Shown here: piece after piece, positions 9,679 to 10,554 of the stretch
Layout: each line of letters starts with the position of its first letter
Position numbering within the stretch: position 1 is the first letter of the stretch
Origin: Escherichia coli
Lineage (GTDB): Bacteria; Pseudomonadota; Gammaproteobacteria; Enterobacterales; Enterobacteriaceae
Direction: 5' to 3' (one strand)
NCBI RefSeq assembly: GCF_017348835.2
Contig: NZ_CP071375.1
DNA length: 64,000 nucleotides
Made by a program: the position numbers and the translations under genes
Notes under the pieces: generated by a model
The model's input: the letters and a program-made list of their open reading frames with translations, nothing else
Databases searched by the model: none
What the model was told of the DNA's origin: nothing

Positions 9679-10554
9679 ATGGACTTTTTTACGTTATTTT
9701 CACCGGATGGGGTCATGCTGGAAACAAACGTGGTATGTATCGTTATCGCGTTAATGTTTCTTTATACCTTTGTGGGGATATGCGCGGGATTTGGCGGTGG
9801 TTTAACCACTATGCCGCTCGTCACGTTAATGCTCCCCGTAAAAATGGCAACACCACTCTCGGTAATTGTCGGCACCGCGACCGCCTTGTACGCCACCTGG
9901 CTGTCACGTAAAGAAACGGATTGGCGATCGGCAATGGTACTGATTATTTTCTCGTTTCTGGGAATACCCGTCGGTTTATATGCGCTGTCGTATTTACCCG
10001 ACCATTTTATGAAAGTGGGCTTAGGCGGATTCCTTATCCTGTACTCCTTTTACAGTATGTTTATTCCACGCCTGCCGATTTATGACCGTAGCTGGATCGC
10101 CGCACCTATCGGTGCAGTAGCAGGCGCATTAGGCGCAGCTTTCTCAACCAACGGACCACCGATGGTTATCTACGGTATGCTGCGTAACTTAGGCCCGGCG
10201 GCATTTCGTGGCACTCTGAACGCTTTCTTCACCGCAAACAACATCGCGGTGATCGGCGGGCTGGCGACCAGCGGAATTTTGACTGTTTCGATCTTTAAAC
10301 TGGTGCTGTTTTGTATTCCCACCATGATCCTCGGTTCACTGGTTGGACAATATGTGCATAAACGTATTTCAGTCAAAGTGTTCCGTGTGATGGTCTTTTT
10401 ATTGCTGATTGCCTCCGGTTCCATGTTGATAAAAGGCGCGCTGGGAATTCCCGCCGCTGCCGCACTTCTACCTCCGTTTACCTTGTTAGTTATACTGCAA
10501 CTGGTATTTGGTAAAAAAGTGGCGGCAATCCGTCAGGCTGAAGCAAGTAAATAA
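9679..10554 (+). CDS. TauE/SafE-like (DUF81) multi-TM permease, putative sulfite/sulfonate exporter
   Basis: 291-aa ORF with about 8 hydrophobic helices and glycine-rich GFGGGL motif; SD caggaaa 5 nt before ATG; sits between yihR and yihQ. Confidence 0.6.
   Translation: MDFFTLFSPDGVMLETNVVCIVIALMFLYTFVGICAGFGGGLTTMPLVTLMLPVKMATPLSVIVGTATALYATWLSRKETDWRSAMVLIIFSFLGIPVGLYALSYLPDHFMKVGLGGFLILYSFYSMFIPRLPIYDRSWIAAPIGAVAGALGAAFSTNGPPMVIYGMLRNLGPAAFRGTLNAFFTANNIAVIGGLATSGILTVSIFKLVLFCIPTMILGSLVGQYVHKRISVKVFRVMVFLLLIASGSMLIKGALGIPAAAALLPPFTLLVILQLVFGKKVAAIRQAEASK

Follow-up and report, generated by a model that had tools for sequence, protein, structure and literature searches.

A TauE/SafE-family permease gene of the Escherichia coli sulfoquinovose cluster, absent from K-12, as a candidate exporter of a C3 sulfonate

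A permease gene between yihR and yihQ

The stretch of Escherichia coli DNA analysed here, 64,000 nucleotides long and called the window below, carries a gene for a 291-residue permease of the TauE/SafE family (TSUP) within its sulfoquinovose cluster (9679-10554, plus strand; the TauE gene). The open reading frame begins with ATG, comprises 291 codons and encodes a very hydrophobic product that is identical to RefSeq WP_000345437.1. The original prediction, made from the sequence alone, had credited the gene with a good Shine-Dalgarno sequence, and we found a Shine-Dalgarno-like AGGAA at 9669-9673 on the plus strand, read from the sequence, 5 nt before the ATG. The start codon is further backed by the N-terminus MDFFTLF[ST]PDG, which is well conserved in other genera with few substitutions.

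The assignment to TauE/SafE (DUF81), which had been made by eye, was borne out by a Pfam search. PF01925 (TauE) matched residues 23-248 at E 8.2e-35 (121 bits) over model positions 2-235 of 237, a significant and nearly full-length match, and the product is a member of the TauE/SafE (TSUP) family. RefSeq names it 'sulfite exporter TauE/SafE family protein' in strains PE164 and EDL933; the annotation used here was read from PE164, which is 100% identical to the window over the stretches compared. None of the curated NCBIfam models matched the protein at E ≤ 0.001. Because no NCBIfam family lies above the cut-off, the name given by RefSeq is a label at the level of the Pfam family.

The open reading frame, the GFGGGL motif (residues 37-42), hydropathy and an AlphaFold2 model agree with the earlier description of a multi-helix membrane protein. 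The hydropathy scan gave about eight core hydrophobic segments and one more at 258-278. The model, built from an alignment of 96 sequences (mean pLDDT 93.2, pTM 0.89), is all-helical and membrane-like, with helices at residues 16-36, 40-49, 54-75, 82-105, 108-128, 138-155, 159-168, 173-198, 203-227, 232-255 and 259-290. Together, hydropathy and model describe a polytopic protein whose eight core transmembrane helices are accompanied by two short ones and, at the C-terminus, by an extra helix. The modelled protein consists of two similar halves, each made of a transmembrane helix, a short helix after a glycine-rich motif and three further transmembrane helices, followed by helix 259-290. The glycine-rich motif of the first half is GFGGG at 37-41, that of the second G-x-x-x-G-x-x-G-A-x-x-x-x-G-P-P at 145-161. 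A BLASTP comparison of the N-terminal with the C-terminal half was not significant (E 0.61), although the helix pattern does repeat. Foldseek found no match of the model in the PDB at E ≤ 0.001, and BacA/UppP, considered as a structural relative, reached best TM-scores of 0.43-0.45, too weak for use.

The neighbours of the gene were identified by NCBIfam models and RefSeq annotation, which places it, as predicted, between yihR and yihQ. Upstream lies yihR, encoding the sulfoquinovose mutarotase (aldose-1-epimerase; 8716-9618, plus strand; NF011719, 616 bits), and downstream yihQ, encoding the sulfoquinovosidase of family GH31 (10662-12698, plus strand; NF007746, 1245 bits). The TauE gene is on the same strand as these flanking pathway genes, within a cluster of the sulfo-Embden-Meyerhof-Parnas (sulfo-EMP) type. 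A spacer of 60 bp separates the yihR stop from its ATG, and 107 bp separate its stop from the ATG of yihQ. The gene is thus close to its neighbours, as had been claimed, but the spacing is moderately tight, with no overlap. A scan of 5300-14300 detected no promoter-like or terminator-like site on the plus strand in the two spacers. The sole plus-strand terminator-like match nearby is at 9727-9752, inside the TauE coding sequence. Nothing was found in the spacers in an Rfam scan either, the only match being in a transposase gene further downstream (see below).

By NCBIfam and RefSeq, the remaining cluster genes upstream are csqR/yihW for the repressor (3711-4496) and yihV for sulfofructose kinase (4530-5426), both on the minus strand, followed on the plus strand by yihU for sulfolactaldehyde reductase (5594-6490; NF012005, 603 bits), yihT for sulfofructose phosphate aldolase (6514-7392) and yihS for sulfoquinovose isomerase (7408-8649). 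Beyond yihQ, on the plus strand, lies yihP (12744-14129; TIGR00792, 534 bits; also found by tblastn and RefSeq), encoding a GPH-family transporter 98% identical to K-12 YihP, and after it a remnant of yihO. The G+C contents of yihR (48.7%) and the TauE gene (48.6%) are lower than the 52-56% of the remaining cluster genes. YihR is also the fastest-evolving protein of the cluster, with 95% identity to K-12, 90% to E. whittamii and 70% to Salmonella; the remaining cluster proteins are 97-99% identical to those of K-12 and E. whittamii and 84-97% to those of Salmonella. We considered that the low G+C might reflect joint acquisition of yihR and the TauE gene from a cluster of the sulfo-Entner-Doudoroff (sulfo-ED) type, and rejected this, the E. 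coli YihR being only 24% identical to the mutarotase of such clusters.

Ancestry of the gene and its absence from K-12

The original prediction had stated that K-12 has no gene at this position. The MG1655 record and an alignment of the interval agree on this point: in K-12 MG1655 the yihR-yihQ interval measures 198 bp and contains no gene. When this interval was compared with the window by BLASTN, homology ended at 9609/9610 and resumed at 10603. The segment absent from K-12 (9610-10602 in the window, plus strand) comprises 993 bp: it takes in the final 3 codons of yihR and runs through the spacer and the TauE gene to 48 bp beyond. Its place in K-12 is taken by about 150 bp of unrelated, AT-rich filler with 27% GC. 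The 3' half of the filler aligns weakly to the spacer that follows yihR and to the opening codons of TauE (score 22 versus 13.1 ± 1.8 for shuffled sequences), which is suggestive, though not proof, of a deletion remnant of the TauE region. The published 10-gene K-12 cluster (ompL and yihO-W) does not include a TauE gene, and the cluster is described as having 10 genes, TauE not among them (PMC8006165).

We then asked which state is the older one. Salmonella enterica has an 87%-identical TauE at the same site, in the same chromosomal neighbourhood (dtd-yihY-yihX ... ompL), and E. whittamii has a 98%-identical TauE at the same site, indicating that the gene is ancestral and that the K-12 state is a derived loss. 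The non-synonymous divergence (dN) of TauE from Salmonella is 0.079, compared with 0.076-0.083 for yihU, yihT and yihQ, and its ratio of non-synonymous to synonymous divergence (dN/dS) comes to 0.044 with E. whittamii and 0.046 with E. coli M1/5. By these comparisons the gene is ancestral, vertically inherited, functional and under strong purifying selection. The original prediction had presented it as a difference from K-12, which holds, but the difference arose by loss in K-12 and not by gain in this strain.

Both states are frequent among 5426 complete E. coli genomes. The yihU-yihS core was present in 4025 of them, the TauE segment in 1296, always single-copy and chromosomal, and the K-12 filler in 2642. 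Among the matches listed, all but one carry an intact gene annotated 'sulfite exporter TauE/SafE family protein'. About two thirds of the cluster-bearing E. coli are without the TauE gene. In O157:H7 strain EDL933, a complete cluster of 11 genes includes one for the identical protein, WP_000345437.1, and the human isolate M1/5 encodes a variant with 3 residue differences. The TauE gene is thus already annotated in RefSeq, common and of a known family, and is not new.

The same survey gave some further observations on the cluster in the species. No match to either yihU-yihS or yihR-yihQ was found in about 1400 of the 5426 genomes (26%), so that, against what the literature states, the sulfo-EMP cluster does not strictly belong to the E. 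coli core. Replacement of the absent sulfo-EMP cluster by a sulfo-ED cluster was rejected, since a distant search with Kluyvera sulfo-ED genes matched 0 of 5426 genomes. A candidate third allele in MLI104K2 (NZ_CP116925.1, L018 617-1620), annotated as a 'hypothetical protein' on the opposite strand, was also discarded, its translation being almost pure poly-K/G. The yihR-yihQ DNA of MLI104K2 is a degraded copy of the TauE 5' end and looks like a homopolymer-ridden assembly of poor quality.

A TauE clade in two types of sulfoquinovose cluster

Searches beyond E. coli showed that the protein belongs to a narrow clade. A word-indexed search returned 320 relatives, and the best 120 of these 320 are all at least 79% identical and all match PF01925; they include proteins from Salmonella, Kluyvera, Hafnia, Enterobacter, Klebsiella, Raoultella, Pantoea, Mixta, Morganella and Leminorella, among others. 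In an exhaustive search of 1.84 billion representatives at 50% identity, we found one full-length close relative (80%). After it, identity drops to 38% or less, in proteins of about 240 residues that are without the C-terminal helix. This extra helix of about 40 residues (...LLPxFxLLxxLQLxFGKKVAAIR...) is conserved in the clade. No sulfonate context was seen at the two nearest distant relatives that were examined (36-38% identity).

Next, we examined the gene neighbourhood at 13 more loci, one set from E. whittamii and the others from 12 further genera or lineages, which make 14 with the window. At all 13, a TauE orthologue (80-87% identity outside Escherichia) lies inside a sulfoquinovose cluster. 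The sulfo-EMP clusters vary in gene order. It is yihR-TauE-yihQ-yihP-yihO-ompL in Salmonella and E. whittamii and yihQ-TauE-yihP-yihO in Enterobacteriaceae RIT691; in Klebsiella quasipneumoniae, yihQ-TauE is followed by a single GPH carrier, 73.7% identical to YihO and 67.8% to YihP, and there is no YihP.

Sulfo-ED-type clusters with TauE were found in Hafnia, Leminorella, Pantoea, Morganella, Mixta and Kluyvera. Here a LacI regulator and an SSF Na+/solute symporter (NF007790, 673 bits) share one strand, and the remaining genes come next, encoding an IlvD/EDD dehydratase, an HpcH aldolase, a mutarotase, an SGL lactonase, a reductase of the beta-hydroxyacid-dehydrogenase type, an SDR-family protein and TauE. 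These protein families match those of the published sulfo-ED pathway (PMC9594981), and Hafnia and Leminorella have been named as sulfo-ED carriers (PMC7491151). In these clusters TauE is the last gene, with its start 9 nt past the stop of the SDR gene, and it encodes the only inner-membrane carrier besides the SSF symporter. It is last in the sulfo-ED-type clusters of 9 genera, including those with both cluster types. In Enterobacter kobei, Raoultella (R. ornithinolytica) and Superficieibacter, a sulfo-ED-type and a sulfo-EMP cluster are adjacent and share a single TauE. Together, these neighbourhoods describe a tight TauE clade that, at the 14 loci, is associated exclusively with sulfoquinovose clusters, of two biochemical types.

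A neighbour-joining tree resolved three TauE groups, Escherichia with Salmonella, RIT691 with Klebsiella, and the ED-associated proteins, with about 80-87% identity between groups. The TauE proteins of sulfo-ED-type clusters are 86-96% identical across Hafnia, Morganella, Pantoea, Mixta, Leminorella and Kluyvera, which belong to several enterobacterial families. This suggests that the sulfo-ED cluster may have moved horizontally within the order. Several details of arrangement were also recorded. The sulfo-EMP part of E. kobei is without yihR and TauE, and the sulfo-ED part of Superficieibacter is without its own reductase, with yihU adjacent. The Kluyvera sulfo-ED-type cluster lies at the chromosomal position (yihX ... 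typA) that the sulfo-EMP cluster takes in E. coli, and in Pantoea an OmpL orthologue (88% identity) follows TauE.

Candidate function of the permease

The setting of the clade points to a role in product export. In agreement with the original prediction, we consider, with moderate confidence, that the TauE gene encodes an inner-membrane exporter of 2,3-dihydroxypropane-1-sulfonate (DHPS), the C3-sulfonate end product of the pathway. Both pathway types begin at sulfoquinovose and, in these organisms, end with a reductase for sulfolactaldehyde, so that a C3 sulfonate must leave the cell; TauE would be the secondary transporter that carries DHPS out across the inner membrane. The importers differ by pathway (the GPH proteins YihO and YihP versus an SSF symporter), while TauE is common to both. 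The presence of the same orthologue in sulfo-EMP and sulfo-ED-type clusters strengthens the case for a DHPS exporter. Furthermore, the sulfo-ED-type clusters hold one carrier of an importer family, SSF, and one other, which argues that TauE does the exporting. In the Klebsiella sulfo-EMP cluster, TauE stands with one YihO-like carrier and no YihP. TauE-type proteins in clusters of the transaldolase type (sulfo-TAL; SftE), in the Arthrobacter sulfo-EMP cluster and in DHPS-degradation clusters have been assigned as sulfonate product exporters (PMC7491151, PMC8873060, PMC11489063). We infer from this context the substrate DHPS, the outward direction and co-transcription of the gene with yihUTSR and yihQ.

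The carrier so far proposed for this step in K-12, YihP, is described there as only the 'most likely' DHPS exporter (PMC6278857). YihO and YihP are 64.7%-identical paralogues, both of them GPH sugar:cation symporters. This likeness suits a pair of importers better than one importer and one exporter of DHPS, and is not easily squared with the common depiction of YihP in the export role. A wider proposal is that the isolated TauE clade, and not YihP, exports DHPS in both sulfo-EMP and sulfo-ED, and that YihP is a second sugar importer, for example of sulfoquinovosyl glycerol; we put this forward tentatively, as possible but somewhat short of an even chance. K-12 and about two thirds of the cluster-bearing E. 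coli have lost TauE by deletion or replacement, and DHPS must leave these cells by another way.

Several points weigh against a dedicated DHPS exporter. K-12 grows on sulfoquinovose and excretes DHPS (PMC6278857) without a TauE gene, so that the gene is dispensable in that background at least. The pattern of TauE without YihP comes from one Klebsiella locus. The assignment of the sulfo-ED-type clusters rests on gene families and literature statements, and their dehydratase scores at the cut-off of the L-arabinonate dehydratase model. No solved structure related to the protein was found by sequence at E ≤ 1, and the promoter and terminator scan speaks neither for nor against this role. In the window strain itself, the importer gene yihO is disrupted though the TauE gene is intact. 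To the same side belong the family's name, TSUP, taken from a toluene-sulfonate uptake permease, and one paper (PMC8940949) in which sulfoquinovose import is ascribed to the TauE/TSUP transporters of sulfo-EMP and sulfo-ED clusters.

These last two points lead to the main alternative, in which TauE imports sulfoquinovose or a sulfoquinovosyl glycoside. In sulfo-EMP clusters it would do so beside YihO and YihP, in sulfo-ED clusters beside the SSF symporter. As uptake is a function that both pathways have in common, the sharing of one module is compatible with this alternative as well. However, a dedicated sugar:cation symporter is already encoded in each of the clusters examined, either a GPH protein (YihO, YihP or both) or an SSF carrier, and besides TauE these clusters contain no candidate exporter but YihP. 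A second importer for glycosides would be of no use in the clusters that are of the sulfo-ED type only, since these are without sulfoquinovosidase, and in K-12 the deletion of yihO alone abolishes growth on sulfoquinovose (PMC6278857). We regard import as unlikely. A looser connection is also conceivable, TauE moving another anion or having a general membrane role that is only loosely coupled to sulfoquinovose, with its loss from K-12 the shedding of dispensable baggage. That two thirds of cluster-bearing E. coli, K-12 included, are without TauE and K-12 runs the pathway nevertheless would fit such a role, as would expression studies in K-12 that point to transcription of yihR and yihQ apart from the core genes (PMC5816610). 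It accords poorly with a clade that stays in sulfoquinovose clusters at 14 of 14 loci through rearrangements of gene order and in two different pathways, with a dN/dS of about 0.045, and with the 9-nt distance of the TauE start from the preceding gene in sulfo-ED-type operons; we judge it quite improbable, more so than import. The least probable of the alternatives takes the RefSeq name 'sulfite exporter TauE/SafE family protein' literally, as a protein that removes sulfite made from sulfonates. Papers that cite the work on the founding member, the TauE of Cupriavidus necator, do describe that protein as exporting sulfite (PMC8873060, PMC12421959). The sulfo-EMP pathway, however, ends at DHPS, with no cleavage of the C-S bond and no sulfite (PMC6278857, PMC8006165), and no gene for a desulfonating enzyme was seen in any cluster examined. 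With at most 38% identity to any TauE outside its own clade, the protein bears that name as a family label only.

Comparison with known systems places the proposed DHPS exporter among related proteins with similar settings. TauE of C. necator H16 (SafE-type; DUF81, PF01925, TSUP TC 2.A.102) is a polytopic helical protein of the same Pfam family, with glycine-rich motifs in both halves, and lies in a sulfonate-catabolic cluster, where it is proposed to remove a sulfur-containing anion (PMC8873060). Its proposed substrate is sulfite or sulfoacetate, whereas no sulfite is released in the E. coli pathway. A further difference is that the protein of the window belongs to an isolated enterobacterial clade, at most 38% identical to its nearest outside relatives, with an extra C-terminal helix. 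SftE of the sulfo-TAL clusters of Bacillus, Enterococcus and Clostridium (PMC7491151) is likewise a TauE-family protein in a sulfoquinovose cluster and is predicted, by context only, to export sulfolactate or DHPS. It serves a transaldolase pathway in another phylum, and is likened to the window protein by family and context. The TauE of Arthrobacter sp. AK04 lies within a sulfo-EMP cluster and is proposed to excrete a sulfonate (PMC8873060), but that cluster ends at sulfolactate (sulfolactaldehyde dehydrogenase) and has an ABC importer, whereas the E. coli cluster ends at DHPS (the YihU reductase) and has GPH symporters. K-12 YihP is an inner-membrane carrier of the same cluster, and no other E. 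coli protein has so far been proposed to export DHPS (PMC6278857). It belongs to the unrelated GPH family (TIGR00792), occurs together with TauE in the window and is absent from the TauE-bearing Klebsiella cluster.

TauE genes in sulfo-EMP and sulfo-ED clusters have been mentioned before (PMC8940949, which cites Denger 2014 and Felux 2015), and export is the field's default function for TauE genes in such clusters. In the literature we found, what is not spelled out is K-12 as a loss variant, one clade serving both pathways, and the TauE/YihP pattern. A literature search gave no paper with both 'TauE' and 'yihR' for enterobacteria, none for the putative Salmonella locus tag STM4020, and no expression data for the TauE gene.

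The exit of DHPS is the one step of E. coli sulfoglycolysis without an experimentally assigned protein. DHPS from enterobacteria feeds sulfite-respiring gut bacteria that make hydrogen sulfide. An exporter would thus set a cross-feeding flux of ecological and medical interest. Because O157:H7, Salmonella and many other E. coli isolates have kept a gene of the cluster that the model strain K-12 is without, and because this gene goes with sulfo-EMP and sulfo-ED clusters alike, the export step is directly testable. If the TauE clade is the real exporter, K-12 and most A/B1-like E. coli would be natural exporter-deletion strains, with DHPS leaving by a non-dedicated route. In addition, the '10-gene cluster' of K-12 should not be taken as the norm of the species. 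In other respects the TauE gene is an ordinary annotated accessory gene, one that offers useful pointers for experiment and not a new kind of system.

Finally, the right end of the cluster in the window strain is rearranged. By tblastn, K-12 YihO matched the window at 98.9% identity over residues 1-174 only; this yihO remnant (14172-14693, plus strand), a pseudogene in RefSeq, holds 174 of the 467 residues and is cut by an IS3-family element. The IS3-family transposase gene (14749-15962, plus strand; RefSeq) has a programmed frameshift and contains the Rfam match mentioned above, an RF01497 ALIL pseudoknot at 15030-15146 (116 bits). The order in the window is yihO'-IS3-yiiF-fdhE-fdoIHG in place of yihO-ompL-yihN. 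In PE164, a second IS3 copy beyond the left end of the window adjoins yiiE, the 3' part of yihO and ompL (NZ_CP114128.1 4836144-4839042; L022 3445-6343). The two IS3 copies, each beside one part of yihO, imply an IS3-mediated inversion of the fabY-to-yihO segment. The sulfoquinovose importer YihO is probably inactive in this strain. As K-12 without yihO does not grow on sulfoquinovose (PMC6278857), the sulfoquinovose pathway may be inactive in this isolate.

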